Assembly (NCBI GenBank): GCA_041493605.1
Contig: JBGPZD010000003.1
Span: 1 to 45,190, forward strand
DNA from: Candidatus Methylomirabilia bacterium
GTDB taxonomy: Bacteria; Methylomirabilota; Methylomirabilia; Rokubacteriales; CSP1-6
Direction: 5' to 3'
DNA length: 45,190 bases
In this document: one piece after another, positions 5,797 through 30,497 of the stretch
How the letters are laid out: each line of letters opens with the position of its first letter
Numbering within the stretch: position 1 is the stretch's first letter
Position numbers and translations under genes: made by a program
The notes under the pieces: generated by a model
What the model was told of the DNA's origin: nothing
What the model saw: the letters and a program-made list of their open reading frames with translations, nothing else
Databases searched by the model: none

Positions 5797-6867
5797 TTGC
5801 GGGTGCGTAGCTCCGGTGGCGGAACGGTGACGCGGCGAACGGCGAATCGTCAAGGGGGCGAAACGGTGCGCGAAATTCCTGGTGTGCGGCAGCTGGTTCT
5901 GATGATCGGTGTTTTGGCCCTGGCCCTCAGTGGCTGCAGCACACTGTTGGGGGGCCGCTCCGATTCGGCGCTGCTGACCAGTGGCGCCGCGTCCTCCGGA
6001 GAGTCGACGGCGACATCCCCCGAGCCGACTTCCGCCGCGATCGCGGCGGAGAGCAAGACCGGCACGGGCGCGGCGGTGCGGCCCGGCATGGATGATCTGA
6101 GCGCGGGTCCTGCGACGCTGGCCTTCGCGCCGGTATCCTTCGCGCCGATCAAGCCCGAGGACTCGCCCGTCGTCATGGTGGCCTTCGTCGGGCCGCTCTT
6201 CAGCCAGCGCGGCACCCCGGCGCCGCCCGTGGATCCCACGCTCGAGGAGTACGACCCGTGGGAGCCGTTCAACGAGGCGATGTTCAAGTTCAACAAGAAC
6301 TTCCTCGATGACTACCTCCTCAAGCCGGCCGCGAAGGGCTACAACTACGTGATGCCGGACATGTTCCAGCAGATGATCGACAACGGCTTCAACAACCTCA
6401 AGTTCGTCCCCTTCTTCGTCAACAACCTGCTGCAGGGCCGGCTCCAGGGGGCGGGAACCGAGCTCGGCCGGTTCCTGATCAACAGCACGTTTGGTGTGGG
6501 CGGTCTCTTCGATGTCGCCAAGCAGGAATTCAATCTCCAAAAGACCAAGACTGACTTCGGCCAGACGCTCGGCGTCTGGGGGTCAGGCCCCGGGCCGTAC
6601 CTGATCCTGCCCTTCTTCTCGCCGCTCACGGTGCGCGACGGCATCGGCACGGGCGTGGACGGGGCCATCAACCCGATCGGCTGGTTTATCCCGCTCGTCT
6701 GGGCGGGCCTGGGGATGAAGGTCGGTGATGCGGTCAACGACCGCTCCCTGAACCTGGACCTCTACCAGGGCTTCGAGGAGACGACGGTGGATCTCTATAG
6801 CGCCGTCCGCAACGGCTACCTGCAGCGGCGCATCAAGATCATCGAGGACGCGAAGACCGCCCGCTAG
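5797..6867 (+). CDS. mlaA: MlaA/VacJ family lipoprotein (true start probably downstream, ~5866-5902)
   Basis: Lipobox ALSGC; motifs DPWEPFNEAMFKFN, GRFLINSTFGVGGLFDVA, DFGQTLGVWG, GPYLILPF and YSAVRNGYLQRR. Confidence 0.9.
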   Translation: MRVRSSGGGTVTRRTANRQGGETVREIPGVRQLVLMIGVLALALSGCSTLLGGRSDSALLTSGAASSGESTATSPEPTSAAIAAESKTGTGAAVRPGMDDLSAGPATLAFAPVSFAPIKPEDSPVVMVAFVGPLFSQRGTPAPPVDPTLEEYDPWEPFNEAMFKFNKNFLDDYLLKPAAKGYNYVMPDMFQQMIDNGFNNLKFVPFFVNNLLQGRLQGAGTELGRFLINSTFGVGGLFDVAKQEFNLQKTKTDFGQTLGVWGSGPGPYLILPFFSPLTVRDGIGTGVDGAINPIGWFIPLVWAGLGMKVGDAVNDRSLNLDLYQGFEETTVDLYSAVRNGYLQRRIKIIEDAKTAR

Positions 6868-7747
6868 TCCGCGCGCTGCCGGGGCTCGAGCAGCCCCAGC
6901 ACTCCCGAGCTATCCAGACGGCCGAGCCCGGCTTCCCGGGCTCGGCCGTATAGTTTCCAGGCCTCCCGCCCCACCGCCGGTTCAGCGCCGGCCTGCTCCG
7001 CGAGCTCCAGGCCAAGCCCCAGATCCTTCCACGCCAGATCCACGAAGAACCCGGCCCGGTAGTCGCGGGCGACCAGCGCCGTCAGCTTGCGCTCCAGGAT
7101 GAAGCTCGCCCCCGAGCTCTTGCCGATCACCTCGCCCACGATCTGCCGCGGGATCTCCAGCCGGTCGGCCAGCGCCAGGGCCTCGCACAGCACGGCCTGG
7201 TTGGACAGGGCGACGTAGTTGTTGAGCAGCTTGAGGATGTTCCCCTTCCCCACTTCGCCCAGATAGAAGAGGTTGCGGCCGATGGCGCGGAAGACGCTCT
7301 CGTAGGGCGCCACGGCCTCGGCCGGGGCCCCGATCCCACCGCGAGCGTCCCGGCCCGCGCCCCGGCCACGCTGCCGCTGACGGGGGCATCGATCAGGCCG
7401 ACGCCGTGCGTGCGGCAGCGGGCCGCCAGCGCCCGGGTCGTTTCCGGCCCGACGGTCGAGAGATCGAAGATGACGTCACCCGCCTGGGTGCCGGCCATGA
7501 GGCCCGGGACCCGGTCCCGGCCGAACAGCGCGGCCTCCACCGCACGGTGTTCGGGCAGGCTCAGCAGGGTGACCCTCACGGCCCGGGCCAGCGCGGGCAG
7601 GTCGGGCGCCCGCGTGCCGCCCAGCTGCTCGAGCGGCGCGGTGGCCTCGGGCTTGAGGTCGTAGACGGTGAGCTGGTGGCCGGCCTTCAGGATGTTCTCG
7701 GCCATGGGGCTGCCCATGTTCCCGGTGCCGACGAAGCCGACGTGCAT
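6864..7747 (-). pseudogene. NAD(P)-dependent beta-hydroxyacid dehydrogenase (3-hydroxyisobutyrate/2-hydroxy-3-oxopropionate reductase family) split by a 1-nt frameshift
   Basis: The N-terminal frame (GFVGTGNMG...DAPVSGS..GTLAV) switches near 7337 to the C-terminal frame (IGAPAEAV...KLLNN...KDLGLGL). This could be a sequencing error. Confidence 0.8.
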
Positions 7748-20468: not shown

Positions 20469-22081
20469 CTGCCGCCGATCAGCGCCTTGTACAGCTCGAC
20501 ACCGACCGGCGAGAGGTCGGAGCGGGTCTCGATCGGCAGCCCGGAGTTGGTCCACGCCCCGAGCCCGCCCTTGAGGATCCGCACGTCCTTGAATCCCAGC
20601 TTCCTCAGGTCTCGCGCCATCCTGGCGCTCGTGGCTTCGTCCGCTCAGGTGCAGTAGGCGACCACCGGGCGCGTCGTGTCGAGCTCGAGACCCGCCGTGC
20701 CGCTTTCGAGCTCCTCGGGGGCCAGGCGCACCGAGCCCGGGATCTTGATCGGCATGGCGTCATACGCCGCGGACTTGCGCGTGTCGAGGATGATCGGGTG
20801 CTTGCCCTCCTCGATGAGCTTCACCACTTCCGAGGGGCCGACCCGATAGCGGTTCCTCTGCCAGCGGATCAAGAACTGGGCGCCGTAGCCGCCGGCGCTC
20901 AGGAAGGTCACGCCGATGGCCACCCAGAACCAGGGGAAGGGCCGGGGCGGCGGGTTCTTCACCTTGTCCCGCGCCTCGCCGAGCATGCGCTTGACGTCGG
21001 GCTGGTTGGGCAGGATCTTCTCCGCGTCCTCGAAGCGCCGCGCGGCCCCCTTCCAGTCCTCGCCGAAGAAGGCGCGCAGGCCCGCAAACCAGATTTCGTT
21101 GAACTTGCTGGTGGCGGTGAGGTTGACCGGGGTGCCCGCCACGAAGGCATTCACGACATTCGACGCGATCATGAAGTTGAAGCCCTGGACGATGCTGCCC
21201 TCGGGCCCGGGCGCCAGCGACACGAAGGTGAGCACGCCCACGACGGCGCCCCTCTCGTCCACCGCCGGGCCGCCCGAGTTGCCCCAGGTCGCGGGGGCGT
21301 CCGTCTGGATCAGGGGGTTGTTGTTCTTGTCCTGCTTGAAACCGGAGATGGCGCCGTTGGTCACGGAGGCCTCGACCGTGGCCGACTGGTTCAGCAGCTC
21401 GTGGGAGAGCACCACGCCCGGGAAACCGATGATGTGGACGGGGTCGCCGATCTGCACCGTCTTGGAGTCGGCCAGCGGGAGCGCCGGGAAGTTTTCGCCC
21501 GGCACCTTGAGCAGCGCCAGATCACGCCCGGTCATCTCGCCGGCCTCAGCGCCCACCGGCGAGCTGTACTTTTTCACCTCGGCCTTGAGCCGGCCGCGGC
21601 TCGTGACGACGAAGACGCCGGGCTGCAGCGCCACCTTGGCCGTGGGCAACACCTGGTCGAGGAGCTTGCGCTTGGCGGCCTCCTCCAGGTCGGGCCGGTC
21701 ACCCGGCTGAAGCCCCATGCCTTTCAGGACCTTCGGTAGGCAGGCGGTCGACACCGCGCGCTGGGCCTGCTGGTTGACGAGCCACCGGGGCGTCTCGTGG
21801 GCCGGCTGGACCACGTGGCCGTTGGTGATCAGCCACCCGGCGGAATCGACGAACCAGCCCGTGCCGGTCTCCCGGAAGACGGGCGGCGTCACCTTGATCG
21901 GGCCGGCGCCGCAGTTGAGGGTGACCTCGGCGGTCACCTCGGCCACGACCAGCACGACGGCGGGCTTGGCGCGCAGCATGGCTTCCTGCACGGTGACGTT
22001 CCGCTGGGCGCCGGCCGTCGCGGGCAGGAGCGCGGCCAGGAGGAAGGCCCACGTCACTGGACGGCAGAAACGCAGTATCAT
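20465..22081 (-). CDS. putative selenoprotein: signal peptide + trypsin-like serine protease + TM helix + rhodanese domain (Sec at UGA 20645-20647)
   Basis: Protease triad TNGHVV / DLALLKV / GNSGGP. The rhodanese domain reads VVAYCT-TGA-ADEATSARMARDLRKLGFKDVRILKGGLGAW, in frame to TAG at 20465. Confidence 0.85.
20615..20647 (-). promoter_or_regulatory. bacterial SECIS-like hairpin after the in-frame UGA
   Basis: UGA + 16 nt + GCGCCA-GGA-UGGCGC stem-loop with a G-led apical loop. Confidence 0.6.
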
Positions 22082-22120
22082 AGGGCCACTGTCGGTCATT
22101 CTATACCAAAAGGAAAACCC

Positions 22121-22537
22121 ATGAGCCGCCAGATCGGGGAAGTGCCGACGCGGGAGTTCAAGGCTGGCGAGATTATCTTCCGGGAGGGCGACGACCCCAA
22201 GGGCGAGGCCTTCATGGTCCATATCGGCCAGGTGGAGGTCCGCAAGGCGGTCGGCGGCGAAGAGCGCCTGCTGCGGACGCTGGGCAAGGGCGAGCTGTTG
22301 GGGGAGCTGGCCCTCTTCCGGAGCGCCCCGCGCTCGGCCACGGCCGTGGCCGCCGAGGCTGTCACGCTCATGGTCATTCCCGCCAACCGCCTCGACCACA
22401 TGGTGCGGAGCAACCCGGCCCTGGCCGTGGCGCTGATCAAGGACCTCGCGAGCCGCATGCTGGCCGCCGAGGAGCGGGCGCGCGCGGCCGAGGACCGCGC
22501 CAAGGGCGGCGAGGCGGGCGGGGGCAAGAGCGGCTAG
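22121..22537 (+). CDS. stand-alone cyclic nucleotide-binding domain protein
   Basis: Motifs IIFREGD, GELLGELAL and PRSATAVA; AGGA SD. Confidence 0.88.
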   Translation: MSRQIGEVPTREFKAGEIIFREGDDPKGEAFMVHIGQVEVRKAVGGEERLLRTLGKGELLGELALFRSAPRSATAVAAEAVTLMVIPANRLDHMVRSNPALAVALIKDLASRMLAAEERARAAEDRAKGGEAGGGKSG

Positions 22538-23748
22538 CCCGGCAGGCTGAAGGTCTCGGCGGCGAGGCCGGCGATGTGGCGGCCGATCGCGAGCGACGCC
22601 GTGGCCGCCGGCGAGGGCGCGTTGACGACGTGGATGGCGCCCTCGGCCACGCCGATGCGGAAGTCGTCGACCAGGGAGCCGTCGGGGCTCACGGCCTGGG
22701 CCCGGACGCCCGCGCCCCCCCGCCCAATGTCGCCGCGCTCGATCTCCGGCACCAGCTTCTGCAGCGAGCGCACGAAGGCCGCCGTGCTGACCGAGCGGTA
22801 CATCTCGAAGCTGCCCATCCGCCAGTAGCGCCGCGCCATACGCCAGAAGCCGCGGTAGGCCAGAGTCCCCAGCAACTCTTGAGGCCGCACCGTGCTCAGG
22901 CGATAACCCTCGCGCGCGAAGGCCAGCACGGCGTTGGGCCCGGCCTCGATGTCGCCGTGGATGGTGCGCGTGAAGTGCACGCCCAGGAACGGGAACTCGG
23001 GGTTCGGCACCGGGTAGATCAGGTTGCGCACGAGCTCGCGCCGCTCGGCGCGCAGCATGTAGTACTCACCGCGGAACGGAATGATCCGCACCTCGGGGCG
23101 CACACCCATGAGCCGCGCGACGCGGTCGGACTGCAGCCCGCCGCAGTTGATCAGATGCCGCGCCGGCACGGACCCCTGGGGCGTCTCCAGCGTGAGGCCG
23201 TCGGCCCCGCGGCGGATCGCCGTGACTTCGGCGCCCGTCAGGATCCGGGCGCCTCGCTCCCGGATCAGCGCCCCCATCTTCTCGGCCACCTGGACGTAAT
23301 CCACGATGCTCGTCTCGGGCACGAGGATGGCGCGCACCGCCCGGCAGTGGGGCTCGTACTCCTTCACCTCGGCGCCCGAAAGCAGCCGGAGGCCGCGGAG
23401 CCCGTTCTGCCCGCCGCGATCGTAGATGGCCTGGAGCCGCGGCAGCTCGGTCTCGTCGGTAGCGACGATCACCTTGCCGCACTCCTCCCAGGCCACACCG
23501 TGCATCTCGCAGAACTGCTTCATGCTGCGCGCGCCCTCGACGCACAACCGAGCCTTGAGCGAGCCGGGCTTGTAGTAGATGCCCGAGTGGATGACGCCGC
23601 TGTTGTGGCCGGTCTGGTGGGCGGCCAGGCGGGGCTCTTTGTCGAGGAGGACGAGCCGCGCCCGGGAATGGGCCTCCGTCAGGGCCAGCGCGGTGGCGAG
23701 GCCGACGATGCCGCCGCCGATGATCGCGATGTCAGCCTGCTGGGGCAC
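22534..23748 (-). CDS. lhgO: L-2-hydroxyglutarate oxidase family FAD oxidoreductase
   Basis: Motifs IIGGGIVG, HQTGHNSGVIHSGIYY, PFRGEY, PFLGVH and NAPSPAATASL; GTG start at 23748. Confidence 0.9.
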   Translation of the reverse strand: MPQQADIAIIGGGIVGLATALALTEAHSRARLVLLDKEPRLAAHQTGHNSGVIHSGIYYKPGSLKARLCVEGARSMKQFCEMHGVAWEECGKVIVATDETELPRLQAIYDRGGQNGLRGLRLLSGAEVKEYEPHCRAVRAILVPETSIVDYVQVAEKMGALIRERGARILTGAEVTAIRRGADGLTLETPQGSVPARHLINCGGLQSDRVARLMGVRPEVRIIPFRGEYYMLRAERRELVRNLIYPVPNPEFPFLGVHFTRTIHGDIEAGPNAVLAFAREGYRLSTVRPQELLGTLAYRGFWRMARRYWRMGSFEMYRSVSTAAFVRSLQKLVPEIERGDIGRGGAGVRAQAVSPDGSLVDDFRIGVAEGAIHVVNAPSPAATASLAIGRHIAGLAAETFSLPG

Positions 23749-23769
23749 GGCGAGGAGGATACCACGCCC

Positions 23770-23799
23770 TTGACACTCCCCTGCGCGGGCGCCTAGACT
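23770..23799 (+). promoter_or_regulatory. sigma70-type promoter of the rSAM operon
   Basis: TTGACA-18 bp-TAGACT upstream of a GGAGG SD and ATG 23844. Confidence 0.6.
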
Positions 23800-23843
23800 C
23801 TCCCCAATCTCGGTTGGACCACACCAACACCCTGGAGGACCCC

Positions 23844-25241
23844 ATGAAACCCTCCACGTACACCGTGCCGATCGAGCTCGAGACGAGCGGCGTCCTCCTC
23901 CTGTACAACGCCCGCAGCGGGGCGCTCCTCGAGTTTCCGATGTCACGCCGGCCGGCCGTCGACGCCCTCCTCGCCCGGCCACCGGCCGGTGCGCCCGCGC
24001 CGGGCGGCGAGGCGGATCCACTGCTCGCTCAGCTCTCGAACCACGGCTTCCTCATCCCGGACGAGCTCGACGAACTTGCCCACCTGGAGGCTCAGTACAA
24101 GCGCGCGCGGGAGAGCCGCGGCCAATTCTCGCTCACGATCGCTCCCACGGTGAACTGCAACTTTCGCTGCACCTACTGCTATCAGGAGCATCCCAATACC
24201 AAGATGAGCGTCCCGGTGCAGGACGCCCTCGTCGAGCGGGTCCGGAAGGAGGCAGGCGAGGGAAAGCAGATCTCGGTGACGTGGTTCGGGGGGGAACCGC
24301 TGCTCGCTCTGGATGTGATCGAATCCCTCACTCGGCGGTTCCTGGAGGTCGCCGCAGCGGCCCGGGTCGAATACTCCGCCTGGATGATTACGAATGCTTC
24401 GCTGCTGACGCGCAAGGTCGCCGAGACGCTGAAGGAGCTGCGGGTCAACAAGGTCCAGGTTACGCTCGACGGGCCGCCCGAGGTCCACGATGCCCGCCGC
24501 TTCAAGGTCGGCAAAAAGCCGACCTTCGACACCATCGTCGGGAATCTTCGGGACGTATGCGATCTCCTGGAGATCTCGCTCCGCATCAACTGCGACGCGA
24601 CCAACGGCCACCGTGTCCTGGAGCTGCTCGACATCCTGGAGGCGGAGGGACTCAAGGGACGGGTCAACCCCTACCTCGCCCATGTGCAGGCGTACACCGA
24701 GGTCTGTGCCGACGTGGCCACCACCTGCATGAGCGGTCCGGAGTTCAGCCGCTTCGAGGCCGAGACGTACCTGGAAATATACCGAAAAGGGTGGGGCGTG
24801 TCGGTCAGGCCCCAGCCGCGGACGAGCGTCTGCATCGCCGATAAGGCCAATGGCTCGGTCGTCGACCCGACGGGGCGGATCTACAAGTGCTGGAACGACA
24901 TGACGCGCCCCAAGGAGGCGGTGGATCACCTCCAGCTCATCCCCACCATCGAGATGAAGAAGAACCGTCAGAAGTGGGACGCGTGGACGCCGTTCACGCT
25001 CCCCGAGTGCCGGTCGTGCAAGATGCTGCCGGTCTGCCTCGGAGGCTGCGCCTTCGATGCCATGAAGGTTCCCAACCCGACTCACGGCGACTGCACCCAT
25101 TGGAAATGGAACATCAAGGAAGTGCTCGCCCTGAACTACCTCCAAGGCGAGCAGCAGGACTTCCAGACGGCCCTGGAGGAGGCCCTCATGACCCATCAGT
25201 GGCAGGCCCCGGCAGCCGTCCCCGAACCCGCGACCGCGTGA
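23844..25241 (+). CDS. radical SAM/SPASM peptide/protein maturase with N-terminal RRE-like region
   Basis: CNFRCTYC, WFGGEPLL and QVTLDG. SPASM Cys pattern C..YKCW...CRSCKMLPVCLGGC...C. N-terminal 'LLYNARSGA...LSNHGFLI'. Confidence 0.92.
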   Translation: MKPSTYTVPIELETSGVLLLYNARSGALLEFPMSRRPAVDALLARPPAGAPAPGGEADPLLAQLSNHGFLIPDELDELAHLEAQYKRARESRGQFSLTIAPTVNCNFRCTYCYQEHPNTKMSVPVQDALVERVRKEAGEGKQISVTWFGGEPLLALDVIESLTRRFLEVAAAARVEYSAWMITNASLLTRKVAETLKELRVNKVQVTLDGPPEVHDARRFKVGKKPTFDTIVGNLRDVCDLLEISLRINCDATNGHRVLELLDILEAEGLKGRVNPYLAHVQAYTEVCADVATTCMSGPEFSRFEAETYLEIYRKGWGVSVRPQPRTSVCIADKANGSVVDPTGRIYKCWNDMTRPKEAVDHLQLIPTIEMKKNRQKWDAWTPFTLPECRSCKMLPVCLGGCAFDAMKVPNPTHGDCTHWKWNIKEVLALNYLQGEQQDFQTALEEALMTHQWQAPAAVPEPATA

Positions 25242-25255
25242 GTGGGAGAGCCACC

Positions 25256-26131
25256 ATGGAACGCGACGACGTCACAGCGATCATCGAGGCGGTAAGGGTC
25301 CGACTGAGCGGCTTCGACCACATCACCCGGCGCGAGGTATTGAAGGCGCTTCTAAAGAACAGCGCGTTCCTGGCCCTGCTGGCCGGTGGGGGCGCAGGAA
25401 TCCTCGAGCCGTCGCCGGCCGGCGCCCAGCAGCGAACATCCGTCTCAGCAGCAGCCCTCAGAGCCGCGCCGCCCGATCGCGCGTTTGACCGGCAGCGTAC
25501 CGTGTTCACCGAGGGGATGCAGGCCTGGTTGGACCAGATGATTCAGGACATCCTACTGCAGTTAGGCGATATCACCACCGGCAAGAGGGTTGATCCACGC
25601 ACCGGGCGAAGCGAAGGCTATTGCGGGAAAGACACCTGCGAAAGCGATGGGTGCGCGAGTGACACATGTGGCGACAACGCCTGTGGTAAGGACAGCTGCA
25701 ACGAGAACGGCTGTGCATCAGATGGGTGTGCTGACACCAACACATGCGGCAAGCAGGGGTGCTATGATCGGAACGTGTGTGCCGACCGTAACACCTGTAC
25801 CGAGCAGAATTGTGGCACCTTCGTCTGTCCTTCCAATACGTCGGTCGGAGGTTGGCTGAGCCCACGGGAGTTCCTCCAGCGGTATCAGAAGGAGCCGTTC
25901 GTCCGAGAGCTGACGGAGCTGTTCGGCCGGAACGTCGAGAGGGAGCTGCAAAACATGATCGTGAGGGGGACGACCCTGCGCAGCCGTGGGCTGGTCGGTA
26001 CTGGGGCCCCCCCGCCACTCCCCGCGCGCTCTTTCGGCGACATTCTGCGCGACCTGCCGGGCGAGCGGCTACGGCGCACCCCGCCGACGGGTCCGCCGCC
26101 GGCCGCCCCAAAGCCGCGGACGCCACAATAG
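25256..26131 (+). CDS. Tat-signal, Cys-ladder protein; putative rSAM substrate (291 aa)
   Basis: TRREVLK, an h-region and PAGA|Q cleavage site; 14 Cys spaced every 5-6 residues; GGAG SD before ATG 25256. Confidence 0.8.
   Translation: MERDDVTAIIEAVRVRLSGFDHITRREVLKALLKNSAFLALLAGGGAGILEPSPAGAQQRTSVSAAALRAAPPDRAFDRQRTVFTEGMQAWLDQMIQDILLQLGDITTGKRVDPRTGRSEGYCGKDTCESDGCASDTCGDNACGKDSCNENGCASDGCADTNTCGKQGCYDRNVCADRNTCTEQNCGTFVCPSNTSVGGWLSPREFLQRYQKEPFVRELTELFGRNVERELQNMIVRGTTLRSRGLVGTGAPPPLPARSFGDILRDLPGERLRRTPPTGPPPAAPKPRTPQ
25622..25828 (+). repeat. degenerate 15/18-nt repeats encoding C-x4/5 units
   Basis: CGKDT CESDG CASDT CGDNA CGKDS CNENG CASDG CADTNT CGKQG CYDRNV CADRNT CTEQN CGTFV C. Confidence 0.85.
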
Positions 26132-26134
26132 CCC

Positions 26135-27463
26135 GTGAGAGGCCTGCGGCGTCCCATCGGCTGGCTCGCGGTCGCGCTCTGCCTCGGGGCCACGCCGGCC
26201 GGGGCGCAGACGCCCTCGCTCGAGGACACCCCCGCGGGCCAGGCGTTCAAGGCGCGGCAGTACGAGGCGGCGCTCGTGGAGTTCCAGAAGCTCGCCGCAG
26301 CGAATCCCGGCGACGGGCTCGTCCAACGTTACCTCGCGCTGACGCTCGACCGGCTCGGCCGCTATCGCGAGGCCATCGAAGCCTTCCAACGGGCGCTCGC
26401 GTTGGCTCCCGACAACACCGCCACCCACTTTCACCTGGGTGCGACCTATTACAAGGCTGGGGCGCCGGACCTGGCCGACGCGAGCCTCCGCCGCGCGCTC
26501 CGGCTAGGGCCCGACACGCTGTACGCCGGGCTGGCCCGGCGGTATCTGGACGCGATCGCCCAGCAGCGGCTCCAGCTGCAGCGAGCGGGCGCACCGCCGC
26601 CGGTCGGCTTCTCGCTCACCGTGGGCGTGCAGCAGGACTCCAATATCCCGGCGGCCCCGGCCGACCGCTCCCTGTTCGACGGCCCCCGCGCTGGGCTGCG
26701 CGTGTTCGAGCAGCTCGCCGTGGAGTACCGGTTCCTGCGGACACCAGGTTGGTTTGGCTCCTTCGACGCGTCCTCCTACCAATCCGAGTACCCGGGCGGG
26801 GGGTTCCAGCCGTTCCAGCTCTCGACCTATGGCGTGGGCGGCACGCTCCAGCGGACGACCGCGCTCGGAGGCCTCCCGGTGACCGGCTCGCTGCGCTACG
26901 AACACATCTGGGCGCTGCTCGACGGCGACCAGTTCAGCCGCTCGCACGTCGTCACCCTGGCCAGTCAGGTCGGCCTCACGGCGAACACCACAACCCACCT
27001 CTACTACCGCTACGCGAGGGACGACTTCGAAGAGAGGGGGTTCCAGCCCGATCTCTCCTCGCGCGACGGAAACGCCCACACGTTCGGCCTGGCCCAGATC
27101 TGGTACTTCGCCGGCCGCCGCGGGCTGCTGCGGCTCGGGTACGAGTTCCAGCACAACGACACCGAGGGTCGCAACTTCGATATGGACGGTCACAAGGTGA
27201 GCCTCGGGGCGGCCATCCCGCTGTGGTGGGGGATCCAGGCCGATCTCGGGGTTGCGTATGCCCACGAGCGCTATCCCGACTTTCAGGGCGTCTTCGGCAA
27301 GCGAGAGACCGACCGCTGGACCGCCGAGGCGGGACTGAGCCGGTGGCTCAGCCGCCACCTGCGCCTGAACCTGAACTACGCGTACATTGACGAGGACTCC
27401 AACTACGCCATCCTGTCCTACCGGCGCTGGGTCACGGGGGTGAGTCTCACCTATGTATACTAG
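26135..27463 (+). CDS. TPR + outer-membrane beta-barrel protein, Slam/DUF560 (type XI secretion)-like
   Basis: Sec signal (PAGA|Q) and TPRs (YREAIEAFQRALALAP, FHLGATYY). The 'DSNI' barrel start is followed by amphipathic strands and a terminal GVSLTYVY beta-signal. Confidence 0.72.
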   Translation: MRGLRRPIGWLAVALCLGATPAGAQTPSLEDTPAGQAFKARQYEAALVEFQKLAAANPGDGLVQRYLALTLDRLGRYREAIEAFQRALALAPDNTATHFHLGATYYKAGAPDLADASLRRALRLGPDTLYAGLARRYLDAIAQQRLQLQRAGAPPPVGFSLTVGVQQDSNIPAAPADRSLFDGPRAGLRVFEQLAVEYRFLRTPGWFGSFDASSYQSEYPGGGFQPFQLSTYGVGGTLQRTTALGGLPVTGSLRYEHIWALLDGDQFSRSHVVTLASQVGLTANTTTHLYYRYARDDFEERGFQPDLSSRDGNAHTFGLAQIWYFAGRRGLLRLGYEFQHNDTEGRNFDMDGHKVSLGAAIPLWWGIQADLGVAYAHERYPDFQGVFGKRETDRWTAEAGLSRWLSRHLRLNLNYAYIDEDSNYAILSYRRWVTGVSLTYVY

Positions 27464-27773
27464 GGACGTGGGGATCGCTTGGATTTGGATCGCTCTCCTG
27501 CTCGCGCTCGTGGCGCTGGGGGCCACGGTGCCCGCCCCGGCCCACGCCCAGGGCGCCAGGCCGGTGGCCGGGCTATCGGCCGACGAGACTCTGGATCTGG
27601 CGCTCGGAGCGCTCGAAGGGCCAGCCGTCCAGCGAGTCTTGGTTCCACCCGGTAGCCCGGAAGGGCCGGCGGTGTTCCCGCCCTACCAGCAGCAGCCGCC
27701 CGCCGCCCAGAGCGACCTCCGGCTGCCCGCCTCGACCCTCGGCGCGAAGGCCAAGAAGGGCAAGGGCAAGTAG
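27453..27773 (+). CDS. small secreted protein of unknown function
   Basis: Signal peptide ending PAHA|Q, Pro-rich body and KAKKGKGK tail; overlaps the upstream gene. Confidence 0.55.
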   Translation: MYTRDVGIAWIWIALLLALVALGATVPAPAHAQGARPVAGLSADETLDLALGALEGPAVQRVLVPPGSPEGPAVFPPYQQQPPAAQSDLRLPASTLGAKAKKGKGK

Positions 27774-27785
27774 CCCCGCAGCCCC

Positions 27786-28547
27786 CTAGTCCAACACGAG
27801 CGTGATCGGGCAGTGGTCGGAGCCCTGGACGTGCGGCAGGATTGTCGCCGCCCGGACCCGGCGCCTGAGCTCGTCGGAGACGAAGAAGTAGTCGATCCGC
27901 CAGCCGACATTGCGCGCCCGCGCCCCGCTCTTGAGGTCCCACCACGTGTAGTGCCCGGGCTCGGTGACGAAGAGCCGGAAGGTGTCGTGGTAGCCGTGGG
28001 CGATGAACTTCGACACCCAGTCGCGTTCGATGGGCATGAAGCCCGAGGTCTTCTCGTTCTCCTTGGGCCGCGCCAGGTCGATCTCGGTGTGGGCGGTGTT
28101 GACGTCCCCGCAGACCACGATCCCCTTGCCGCCCCGCCTCAGCCGTTCGCAGAGCGCCAGGAAGTCGTCGTAGAAGGTGAGCTTGTGCGCCAGGCGCTCC
28201 GGGCCCATGCCGCCGTTGGGGAAGTAGACGTTGAAGAGGTGGAAGTCGGGGAACTCGGTGTGGACGATCCGCCCCTCGGCGTCCAGCGCCGGCGTGCCGC
28301 CCGCGGTGGTGACGGCCAGCGGGGCGGGCCCGGTGTACGTCACGACGCCGCTGTAGCCCTTTTTCTCGGCGAAGCTCCAGTGGGCCCGGTAGTCCAGCAG
28401 GCCCTTCATCTCGTCGGTGAGCTGGTCGGGCTGGATCTTGGTTTCCTGGAGGCAGAGCACGTCGGGCCCCTCGGCGGCGGCGAACTCGGCGAAGCCCTTC
28501 TTCCAGGCGGCCCGCAGGCCGTTGACGTTCCAGGAAACCAGCTTCAC
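27786..28547 (-). CDS. xth: exodeoxyribonuclease III
   Basis: Motifs SWNVNGLRA, LQETK, GYSGV, YFPNG, GDVNTAH, WRIDYF and SDHCP; GTG start at 28547. Confidence 0.95.
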   Translation of the reverse strand: MKLVSWNVNGLRAAWKKGFAEFAAAEGPDVLCLQETKIQPDQLTDEMKGLLDYRAHWSFAEKKGYSGVVTYTGPAPLAVTTAGGTPALDAEGRIVHTEFPDFHLFNVYFPNGGMGPERLAHKLTFYDDFLALCERLRRGGKGIVVCGDVNTAHTEIDLARPKENEKTSGFMPIERDWVSKFIAHGYHDTFRLFVTEPGHYTWWDLKSGARARNVGWRIDYFFVSDELRRRVRAATILPHVQGSDHCPITLVLD

Positions 28548-28717
28548 CCGAGCAACACCTCCGAAATGTCCGCGGTCCGGGCCATCACGCCTTACTCTAC
28601 CGCGCCCGGCCGGGTCGCCGCCAGCCCGGGCGCCGCCGGCGCCTTGACCAGGGTGGAGACGGCGGTTAGGATGCGGAGGTTGCACGGAGCGACAGATTCG
28701 ACGAGGAGGGAGAGGAC

Positions 28718-29570: not shown

Positions 29571-30497
29571 CTACGGCTGCTGGATGGCGCTCAGCCGCCA
29601 TGGGTTCGGGCCCACCGGTCGGACGAAGGTCCAGTACTCCTCGAACTTCACGGGTTCGGTGCGGCTGCCCTCGAGCACGCGCGCGCCGCTCTCGTCCGTG
29701 GTGTAGTCGAGCAGGTTGGCGAGGAAGCGCACCGTGACGTAGTCCTGGCCCCGCTCCTGCCAGGCCTCGGTCAGCTTGGCCGAGCGCACCGCGATGTTCT
29801 CCAGCCGGTTGATCTTGCCCTCGGCGCGCAGCTTGTCGCAGTCGCGCTGAAGGATTCCGCGCATCTCGTCGGCGAGGGCCCCGGCGGCCACGCTCATGTC
29901 GCGGGCGATCCAGGCGGCCTGAACCTTGAAGAAGATGTCCTCCGCCGTGTCGGCGAAGCGCGCGGGGTCGAAGCCCGCGTCCATCTGCCGGATGAAGCCC
30001 AGCCCGCGGTCGAGATCGCCCGAACCGGCCGGCGCCTCCGCGGTCGCGGCCGGCGCTCCGGACGCGCCGGCATAGCCCGCCGGCGCCGCGTAGCCCCCCG
30101 GAGCCGCATATCGAGATGTCGCCGCGCCCGCCTGCTGCCGCCGCATATAGGCGAACGCGAACCAGACCAGGGCGCCGATGACGACGATCTCGAGCAGGCC
30201 GATGCCGCCGAAGAGCCCGCCGCCCAAGCCGCCGAAGAGCAGGCTGCCGATGAGCCCGCCGACGAGGAGCCCGCCCAGCATGCCGCCCCAGCCCGGCCGC
30301 TGCGGCCCCGGCTGCTGAGCGGCCGGCTGGCTCGGCGAGGCCGGGCTCGTGGAGGGCGGGACCGGCGAGGAGTAGCTGCGCGAGCCGCGGCTGCCGCCCG
30401 AGCTGCCGCCGCCGGCGCGCGCCCAAGCGTCCGCCGTCAGGAGAAGGGGTGTCAGCAGCATCGCGAACAATGCGGTCAGGGCCACGGTCCGTCTCAT
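29571..30497 (-). CDS. Tim44-like domain protein
   Basis: ARAGGGSSGGSRGSRSY N-terminus, Gly-rich TM segments, FFKVQAAW and FEEYWTF..W.LSAIQQ. Confidence 0.9.
   Translation of the reverse strand: MRRTVALTALFAMLLTPLLLTADAWARAGGGSSGGSRGSRSYSSPVPPSTSPASPSQPAAQQPGPQRPGWGGMLGGLLVGGLIGSLLFGGLGGGLFGGIGLLEIVVIGALVWFAFAYMRRQQAGAATSRYAAPGGYAAPAGYAGASGAPAATAEAPAGSGDLDRGLGFIRQMDAGFDPARFADTAEDIFFKVQAAWIARDMSVAAGALADEMRGILQRDCDKLRAEGKINRLENIAVRSAKLTEAWQERGQDYVTVRFLANLLDYTTDESGARVLEGSRTEPVKFEEYWTFVRPVGPNPWRLSAIQQP

Follow-up and report, generated by a model that had tools for sequence, protein, structure and literature searches.

What do four closely packed genes do together when one encodes a radical S-adenosylmethionine (SAM) enzyme, the next a protein whose Cys residues recur like the rungs of a ladder, and the last two an outer-membrane barrel and a small secreted protein? 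This question is raised by positions 23770-27773 of a 45,190-nucleotide stretch of contig JBGPZD010000003.1 (the whole stretch is hereafter referred to as the window), which belongs to a 2.4-Mb metagenome-assembled genome of a Candidatus Methylomirabilia bacterium (79% complete, G+C ~70%). The genes are termed g1 (radical-SAM/SPASM maturase), g2 (Cys-ladder protein), g3 (tetratricopeptide repeat (TPR) and beta-barrel protein) and g4 (small secreted partner). An earlier note, made from the letters of the window, had read them as one system, in which g1 crosslinks the full-size g2 protein in the cytoplasm, the twin-arginine translocation (Tat) pathway exports it and a Slam-like barrel carries it across the outer membrane. 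We arrive instead at a cassette of two modules: g1 and g2 would yield a stapled protein that is exported by Tat, and g3 and g4 would act on this protein at the outer membrane. We give this overall reading slightly less than an even chance.

The evidence for it begins with g2. The protein matches no Pfam family even at E <= 10, and five homologues were found, four in the protein collection and one at a genome locus. All six sequences follow a common plan. The first 23 aa are followed by the motif T-R-R-E-V-L-K, by a hydrophobic stretch rich in Gly/Ala and by a site of the A-x-A type; the Cys ladder (69-134 aa) then lies between two conserved domains, one of ~65 aa on its N-terminal side and one of ~70 aa on its C-terminal side, and the tail is Pro-rich. 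Every Cys in the six proteins is confined to the ladder, which holds 14 to 23 per protein, for the most part at a spacing of 5 or 6 residues. The ladder described in the earlier note is thus present, with all 14 Cys of g2 lying within residues 123-191 and the C-x-x-[DNEQ] pattern enriched. D, N, E or Q stands at position +3 of 10 of the 14; across the six proteins the counts are 10/14, 10/14, 9/22, 9/23, 12/19 and 12/18 Cys, and the enrichment beats shuffles of the non-Cys residues in four of the six (p 0.0004-0.005; g2 p = 0.0028).

The ladder is also the least conserved part of the protein. It is 29-32% identical in four distant homologues, with much of that identity contributed by the Cys themselves, whereas the signal region (residues 24-57) is the most conserved at 68-79% and the C-terminal domain is 46-54% identical; the Pro-rich tail is conserved too. 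Even against a 92%-identical relative, the ladder is only 86% identical while the other regions reach 91-97%. No DNA tandem repeat was found in the ladder. An RNA-library contig of a related strain carries 19 differences in 211 nt over the ladder (25602-25812), compared with 3-10 per 150-250 nt elsewhere, which agrees with the ladder being the fast-evolving part. A conserved N-terminus followed by a hypervariable core is the logic expected of precursors of peptides that ribosomes synthesize and that are modified after translation (RiPPs), and g2 appears RiPP-like in this respect.

The gene directly upstream provides a candidate enzyme. In line with the earlier note, g1 has the features of a radical-SAM/SPASM maturase: it matches Radical_SAM (PF04055, 65.4 bits against a cut-off of 29.5), Fer4_12 (also Pfam) and the SPASM domain TIGR04085 (51 bits against 27), and it contains a CX3CX2C motif at Cys105/109/112 and seven SPASM Cys (330, 349, 389, 392, 398, 402 and 417) with a CX2CX5CX3C pattern. 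Its nearest solved structure is the thioether synthase CteB (5wgg, E 5.6e-12). The best NCBIfam match of g1 is TIGR04463, the CrpC family (312.4 bits); because this lies under the cut-off of 525, g1 belongs to a related clade and is not a member. Lower scores were obtained with the models for Clo7bot (306 bits, cut-off 600), the geopeptide maturase (216, cut-off 400), the FlmE/OhkG maturase (202, cut-off 500), CefB (185.8, cut-off 600), PapB (115.9, cut-off 340), QhpD (88.2, cut-off 453) and the SCIFF maturase (68, cut-off 425). The top families are all maturases of Cys-containing peptides, and these similarities place g1, as a putative maturase, among the RiPP enzymes that form thioethers. 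The radical-SAM core is preceded by about 95 aa, and with the models for the geopeptide and FlmE/OhkG maturases the alignment to g1 starts at residues 13 and 1, respectively.

A search of 5.8 billion proteins with g1 returned 316 proteins at E <= 1e-30 among 8000 candidates scored. Eleven cluster representatives are 66-97% identical to g1 and the next is identical at 47% or less; this gap places g1 in a small, separate clade. A metagenome scan with the radical-SAM alignment gave eight loci, all only 27-31% identical. One distant radical-SAM/SPASM relative (L019:1486-3075, minus strand, G405:C5; 215 bits to the clade profile) lies just downstream of a 66-aa open reading frame (ORF) that ends in YCGCRNVCLV, an ordinary short-peptide arrangement, unlike the protein-sized g2.

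The closest precedent for such a pair is found in Methanococcus voltae. There, according to a 2026 report, the enzyme CrpC, which belongs to TIGR04463, puts thioethers of the ranthionine type on its substrate CrpA (PMC13692751). CrpA is a Cys-rich protein of 28.8 kDa that has C-X-X-Q/D motifs, and its N-terminal part aids binding. The likeness to g1 and g2 extends from the enzyme family to the arrangement, with a whole-protein substrate encoded beside the enzyme, an acceptor at Cys +3 and a conserved N-terminal part as leader. By contrast, CrpA, as described there, has ten 17-residue repeats, whereas the g2 ladder has a period of 5-6 residues and is hypervariable; the Crp cluster is archaeal and has no described outer-membrane partner; and g2 has a Tat-like signal and an accompanying barrel pair, whereas the main text of PMC13692751 describes no signal peptide for CrpA and contains none of the terms 'signal peptide', 'secret', 'export' and 'Tat'. 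Given the CrpC/CrpA precedent, thioether stapling is the most likely chemistry for g1 on g2. It is highly probable that g1 would modify g2, and reasonably likely that the links would be thioethers from Cys to the residue at +3.

Other known pairs share single features with the cassette. The CefA/CefB pair ('Cys-every-fifth', NF038108 / NF038107) has the same Cys period and gives weak matches to g2 and g1, but both are under cut-off (residues 122-159 of g2 reach 22.9 bits against 30 with CefA), and the CefA model, being 65 positions long, describes a short peptide and not a 291-aa exported protein. PapB (freyrasin) and CteB (SCIFF) have the radical-SAM/SPASM architecture and the logic of Cys-to-Asp/Glu thioethers; their substrates, unlike g2, are short, released by proteolysis and devoid of a signal peptide, and g1 is under both family cut-offs. 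QhpD makes Cys-to-Asp/Glu thioethers in QhpC of quinohemoprotein amine dehydrogenase, so that here too a protein subunit is thioether-linked in the cytoplasm by a radical-SAM/SPASM enzyme and ends up periplasmic. QhpC is a small protein that ends up as an enzyme subunit and depends on a subtilisin-like leader protease and on its own ABC exporter, whereas the insert in the window encodes no such partner.

Two other accounts of g1 and g2 have to be weighed at this point. The ladder Cys might not be thioether-linked at all, g2 being a Tat-exported binder of a metal or cluster and g1 performing sactionine (Calpha-thioether), epimerisation or C-C chemistry. Cofactor-loaded proteins are common Tat cargo, the ladder is rich in Asp, Asn and Gly, and, g1 being under every family cut-off, homology does not settle what chemistry it performs. 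The authors of the Crp report also suspect that the role of CrpA is related to metals (PMC13692751). A binding site would, however, be expected to keep fixed spacing and ligands, yet the ladder varies almost twofold in length at the low identity given above; the D/N/E/Q residues at +3 fit the acceptor pattern of CrpA, and the enzymes most similar to g1 all act on Cys-containing peptides. We therefore consider this account improbable. The other treats g2 as a RiPP precursor of the usual kind whose leader and follower are very long, and from which a protease frees the ladder peptide. Conserved flanks around a variable core are RiPP-like, an S8 subtilase gene lies directly upstream of the radical-SAM gene in one related genome (G251, below), and the G405 relative of g1 adjoins a short peptide with a Cys-rich C-terminus. 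But neither the insert in the window nor the surroundings of the second complete cassette (G037, below) contain a protease, a peptide exporter is absent, and the conservation of the C-terminal domain and of the Pro-rich tail is not what a discarded follower would need. The chance of this account is small indeed. Stapling of the intact g2 protein remains the preferred reading.

If g2 is stapled as a whole, the question becomes how it would leave the cytoplasm. Residues T24 R25 R26 E27 V28 L29 K30 are invariant in all six sequences, and in g2 they are followed by SAFLALLAGGGAGIL and then by A-G-A before Gln58. The Tat consensus is S/T-R-R-x-F-L-K, followed by a mildly hydrophobic stretch and an A-x-A site. 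The genome of the window encodes TatC (PF00902, 208 bits at G000:C36). From the motif, Tat export of g2 is probable. The conservation of this region is itself unlike that of ordinary signal peptides, since those of g3 and g4 show no such conservation when these genomes are compared (local alignments begin at residues 25 and 22, and few columns of alignment A6 are conserved). The N-terminal segment of g2 may serve as both leader for g1 and Tat signal, a suggestion that we make tentatively, with the balance somewhat against it.

The second line of evidence comes from the distribution of the four genes. The earlier note had proposed a gene-neighbourhood check, and this places g1 and g2 with g3 and g4 in three genomes from two phyla. 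When 185,579 species, each represented by a single genome, were scanned with a pattern of the ladder protein, relatives turned up at two loci; in profile searches, it was a true match in 2 of the 251 genomes of the window's phylum, and it is also present in G251, from another phylum, of which 1 of 401 sampled genomes contains the clade radical-SAM gene. A metagenome scan with the ladder alignment gave 185 pattern matches and no relatives, and a match in G159 (19 bits) was rejected as spurious because it lay on the Pro-rich tail and had two TGA codons inside. In G037 (Ca. Rokuibacteriota), all four genes recur in unchanged order, flanked by gcvT and an endonuclease III-like gene (identities: radical-SAM protein 79%, barrel 55%, g4 62% over 52 aa, ladder protein 43%). 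In G251 (Thermodesulfovibrionia, G+C 47%), the radical-SAM gene (66%) and the ladder gene lie 2.7 kb from the barrel gene (51%), which is at the contig end, and a g4 fragment starts another contig; there, an extracytoplasmic function (ECF) sigma factor, a zf-HC2 anti-sigma factor and the S8 subtilase directly precede the radical-SAM and ladder genes, all in one string (L005:1547-4470).

The barrel and g4 have a wider distribution. G036 (99% complete) has the barrel (419 bits) and g4 without the radical-SAM and ladder genes, and in G285 the barrel (497 bits) is followed by a FecR-domain protein that contains the g4 motif, the radical-SAM and ladder genes not being found. The g1-g2 pair is thus accompanied by the barrel and g4 in 3/3 genomes, whereas the barrel and g4 stand alone in 2 of 5. 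Because the latter pair exists without the former, the cassette is made up of two modules and is not the single system of the earlier note.

Several genes near these solitary barrels deserve mention. On contig G036:C6, two paralogous genes for secreted proteins are divergent to the barrel and g4 (L052:4451-5968 and 5991-7451, minus strand); their products (505 and 486 aa, 71-72% identical) are of low complexity, with Pro-rich ends, four Cys each and no Pfam family, and their similarity to g2 does not exceed chance. Both may be alternative cargo. A short-chain dehydrogenase/reductase (SDR) gene follows g4 in G036, and a similar one follows xth in the window. At the contig end of G285:C181, a radical-SAM gene with a B12-binding domain (L060:4563-5978, minus strand) lies upstream of the barrel on the same strand, with a nucleotidyltransferase/HEPN-like pair and one further gene in between; this radical-SAM gene has no relation to the g1 clade.

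In the window, the four genes arrived as a block. The flanking lhgO-like and xth-like genes have orthologues that are 80-85% identical and lie 43-45 nt apart on one strand in both same-genus genomes searched (G001 and G002), and homology to G001 ends at ~23769 and restarts at ~27786 in window coordinates. About 4.0 kb (about 23770-27785) is therefore present here and absent from two congeners, and nothing but the four plus-strand genes and the promoter-like site lies within it. A search for repeats on either side of the insertion gave none. G+C falls to 0.60-0.67 over g1-g2, compared with ~0.70 in the flanks. The layout given in the earlier note, with four genes between lhgO and xth, their spacings (14 nt between g1 and g2, 3 nt between g2 and g3, an 11-nt overlap of g3 and g4) and the promoter-like site, was reproduced in full (Table 1), and so was the lack of a peptidase or ABC exporter, none of which was found within the insert in the ORFs or in scans with family models. 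A promoter scan of the region gave two sites, compared with 0.5 +/- 0.7 in shuffles; the TTGACA-18-TAGACT site is a candidate promoter by consensus match, which does not in itself evidence function.

Table 1. Positions of the cassette genes, their notable segments and the flanking genes in the window
Feature	Position	Strand	Remarks
g1, radical-SAM/SPASM maturase	23844-25241	+	465 aa from ATG; upstream TTG at 23814 possible
g2, putative Cys-ladder precursor	25256-26131	+	291 aa; no Pfam family
g2 residues 1-57, Tat-like signal and candidate leader for g1	25256-25426	+	motif and conservation
g2 residues 123-191, Cys ladder	25622-25828	+	14 Cys at 5-6 residue spacing
g3, TPR and beta-barrel outer-membrane protein	26135-27463	+	442 aa; TPR and SlipAM matches
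g4, small secreted Pro-rich protein	27453-27773	+	106 aa; Sec-type signal
Promoter-like site TTGACA-18-TAGACT	23770-23799	+	10/12 consensus matches; left edge of insertion
Left flank, DAO-family FAD oxidoreductase (lhgO-like)	22534-23751	-	outside cassette
Right flank, exodeoxyribonuclease III-like (Exo_endo_phos, xth-like)	27786-28565	-	outside cassette

Many metagenome runs from sediment contain this stretch in near-identical form. Two RNA libraries yielded contigs, 90-99% alike, that cover parts of every cassette gene as well as the g1/g2 and g2/g3 junctions, a weak hint that the cassette is expressed; parts that they leave uncovered carry no information. Further out, a minus-strand ORF (20645-22399) contains a trypsin-like serine protease (the part 20645-22000 was scanned) and a Tim44-like-domain protein is encoded at 29571-30497 on the minus strand; neither has an evident link to the cassette. 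The asymmetry in co-occurrence, taken together with the single 4-kb insertion, favours a functional link between the modules, and the asymmetry is consistent with a relation of cargo and porter. We judge the link between g3 and g4 and the ladder protein to be as probable as its absence.

What the second module might do depends largely on g3. The protein consists of a signal peptide, a TPR domain of ~125 aa (~residues 22-147, with TPR families covering about 34-135) and a barrel of ~295 aa (~148-442, nt 26576-27460) that ends in Y-V-Y; a crude amphipathicity count gave 11 segments in the barrel, one of them long enough for two strands, where a DUF560-type barrel would have 14 strands. g3 is the only match in the window genome to SlipAM/DUF560 (PF04575); its score of 34.3 bits exceeds the cut-off of 22, and the match spans positions 104-277 of the 288 in the profile. 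A paralogue in G037:C37 reaches 32.7 bits over positions 1-284 of 288. The comparison covered 42 full-length relatives of g3, and 40 proteins were picked for it from 150 (418-467 aa, one matched stretch; long TPR proteins and fragments excluded). TPR_Slam was matched by 19 of the 42 at E <= 1e-3, and those seen were all under its cut-off. By sequence, the whole of g3 matched only TPR proteins in the PDB and the barrel alone matched none; a three-row barrel profile gave one chance match (E 1.5). A complex prediction for g3, g4 and mature g2 as partner scored 0.00 against a mark of 0.32, with an uncertain g2 fold, and was not used either way.

A second, distant barrel family is common in the phylum. 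Proteins of ~520-530 aa with a longer TPR domain and a barrel match the g3 barrel profile at 27-103 bits in 117 of the 251 phylum genomes (examples are L038:838-2403, L042:799-2391, L027:784-2373 and L026:1498-3084). SlipAM matched none of the four that were scanned. At the two such loci whose neighbours were scanned, the next gene encodes a FecR-domain protein.

The g4 protein has a Sec-type signal that ends in A-H-A before Gln33 and a conserved motif ending in PPY-x-Q-x-PPAAQ-x-D-x-R, and its tail is rich in Pro. The protein collection contains 18 relatives, and the 11-nt overlap with g3 is kept in 3/3 complete pairs with a small g4. On contig G285:C181, the gene directly downstream of the clade barrel encodes a FecR-domain protein of 376 aa (44.7 bits; L060:2-1129, minus strand) that has the g4 motif as its C-terminal part. 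g4 may be a cut-down FecR-type partner.

Several observations weigh against the two-module reading. g1 misses the curated cut-off of every named family, and the PqqD/RRE model gave no match to it at E <= 0.1; for the RiPP recognition element (RRE) to which the earlier note alluded, the one hint is that the N-terminus of g1 is homologous to those of other RiPP maturases. In two of the ladder proteins (P0002, p 0.29; P0003, p 0.09), the +3 enrichment falls short of significance. The Tat-signal models (Pfam TAT_signal and TIGR01409) matched neither g2 (E <= 0.1) nor the six homologous proteins (E <= 10), although such models are short and HMMER filters discard weak matches; of the Tat signal claimed in the earlier note, the invariant motif and the genomic TatC stand and a model match is lacking, so that the Tat call for g2 rests on the motif. 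The RNA-library contigs also cover both flanks, and DNA carry-over is possible. In G251, the interval between the ladder and barrel genes is occupied by a run of ~100 N, by a PIN toxin module and by genes for two Pro/Thr-rich proteins that are secreted (L005:7157-9602). The co-occurrence counts, made without a statistical test, come from only three to five metagenome-assembled genomes that are related and incomplete, and the barrel and g4 have an additional role, as they are found without g1 and g2 in two genomes.

Other such observations concern g3. Of the five clade barrels, only that of the window reaches the SlipAM cut-off, its orthologues from G037, G251, G036 and G285 giving no match, and at E <= 1e-3 SlipAM is matched by only 4 of the 42 relatives; the SlipAM membership of g3 is therefore borderline. 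Weak matches also connect g3 to other barrel families, namely PgaA, BcsC and PEP-CTERM-associated outer-membrane protein. In the Slam-like, or type XI secretion system (T11SS), proteins, known cargo is Sec-dependent, presumably unfolded and equipped with a C-terminal 8-stranded barrel domain, and known members are proteobacterial (PMC12282271, PMC8406197); PF04575 also catches PgaA-type polysaccharide porins. g3 resembles them in its N-terminal periplasmic TPR domain (~125-140 aa), its C-terminal barrel (~290 aa), the adjacent gene for a presumed cargo and the Pfam cut-off passed. It differs in its hosts, which are Ca. Rokuibacteriota and Thermodesulfovibrionia, and in the coupled small protein g4, which has a Sec-type signal but no 8-stranded barrel domain; g2, for its part, has a Tat-like motif, no Pfam domain and no C-terminal barrel domain. 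The Sec dependence of known cargo, the missing barrel domain of g2, the porins within PF04575 and the pairing of the wider relatives of g3 with FecR-domain proteins together argue against a classical T11SS mechanism. Of the Slam-like exporter in the earlier note, then, the TPR and barrel layout and the passed cut-off remain, and the export of Tat cargo by such a porter fits badly with what is known. True T11SS-like translocation by g3 is doubtful.

These points lend weight to an alternative in which the modules are independent neighbours: the stapled g2 would stay periplasmic or anchored in the inner membrane by an uncleaved signal, and g3 and g4 would be a separate module travelling along, serving other cargo, surface signalling related to FecR-type systems, or polymer export. 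The occurrence of the barrel and g4 without the radical-SAM and ladder genes in G036 and G285 fits this alternative, as do the g4 motif at the tail of a FecR-domain protein in G285, the FecR-domain neighbours of the widespread ~530-aa barrels at both loci checked, the PgaA-type porins caught by PF04575, the weak PgaA, BcsC and PEP-CTERM-associated matches of g3, and the Sec dependence of T11SS cargo. However, the radical-SAM and ladder genes were never found without the barrel pair, the four genes form one tight operon in two genomes and were gained as a single unit in the window, and the linkage is kept across two phyla; the insert in the window also contains neither a glycosyltransferase nor a sigma factor. 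On this evidence, we consider independent neighbours unlikely, although the alternative carries real weight.

For the two-module cassette, gene content, motifs, conservation, co-occurrence and the insertion are what was observed; from these we infer, as follows, the chemistry, the two steps of export and what the product does. In the cytoplasm, g1 would bind the unusually conserved N-terminal part of g2 and link each ladder Cys by a thioether to the D/N/E/Q side chain at +3, by ranthionine-type chemistry. The product would be a protein-sized chain of small rings with a hypervariable sequence. As a stapled chain would be unable to pass Sec as a plain thread, we propose that it leaves via Tat, with the twin-arginine signal doubling as a RiPP-type leader. 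g3 and g4 would then move the ladder protein across the outer membrane or fix it there. In its fullest form, this would be an envelope-spanning route not described before, in which a dual leader/Tat signal, a pre-crosslinked ladder and a DUF560-like barrel with a FecR-derived partner deliver the product to or outside the surface, and in which export would wait until stapling is complete; taken jointly, these steps are rather unlikely.

Which parts of this are new can be stated more narrowly than in the earlier note, which had called the system putatively new. A full-size protein crosslinked by such an enzyme has a precedent in CrpA/CrpC (PMC13692751), and the half of the cassette that comprises enzyme and substrate is a new variation on the Crp/ranthipeptide theme; the novelty lies in the leader with its Tat-like motif and in the outer-membrane pair that is linked to it. 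In the paper collection searched, no paper linked DUF560 with radical SAM, none named 'Cys-every-fifth' and none relevant, judging by titles and abstract openings, linked twin-arginine with SPASM; Supplemental Data set 1 of PMC13692751, a list of additional Cys-rich proteins associated with radical-SAM enzymes, might include this family.

Whole-protein thioether stapling was first shown in 2026, for CrpA/CrpC, and to this the cassette adds a readable address label in the form of a Tat-like signal and an outer-membrane pair. A hypervariable core between conserved ends is the pattern of a diversifying surface or secreted product, and the ladder protein would fit such a molecule. Even if the reading is wrong, the cassette still marks a separate radical-SAM clade, with ~11 cluster representatives in 5.8 billion proteins, that has a protein-sized substrate. 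If it is right, RiPP-type chemistry would be tied to protein export in a compact four-gene unit testable in E. coli, and DUF560-type porters would reach beyond Proteobacteria and beyond Sec cargo. Should the envelope-spanning route hold in full, no T11SS-like porter before g3 would have been found outside Proteobacteria, and none with a Tat-dependent cargo that is crosslinked post-translationally.

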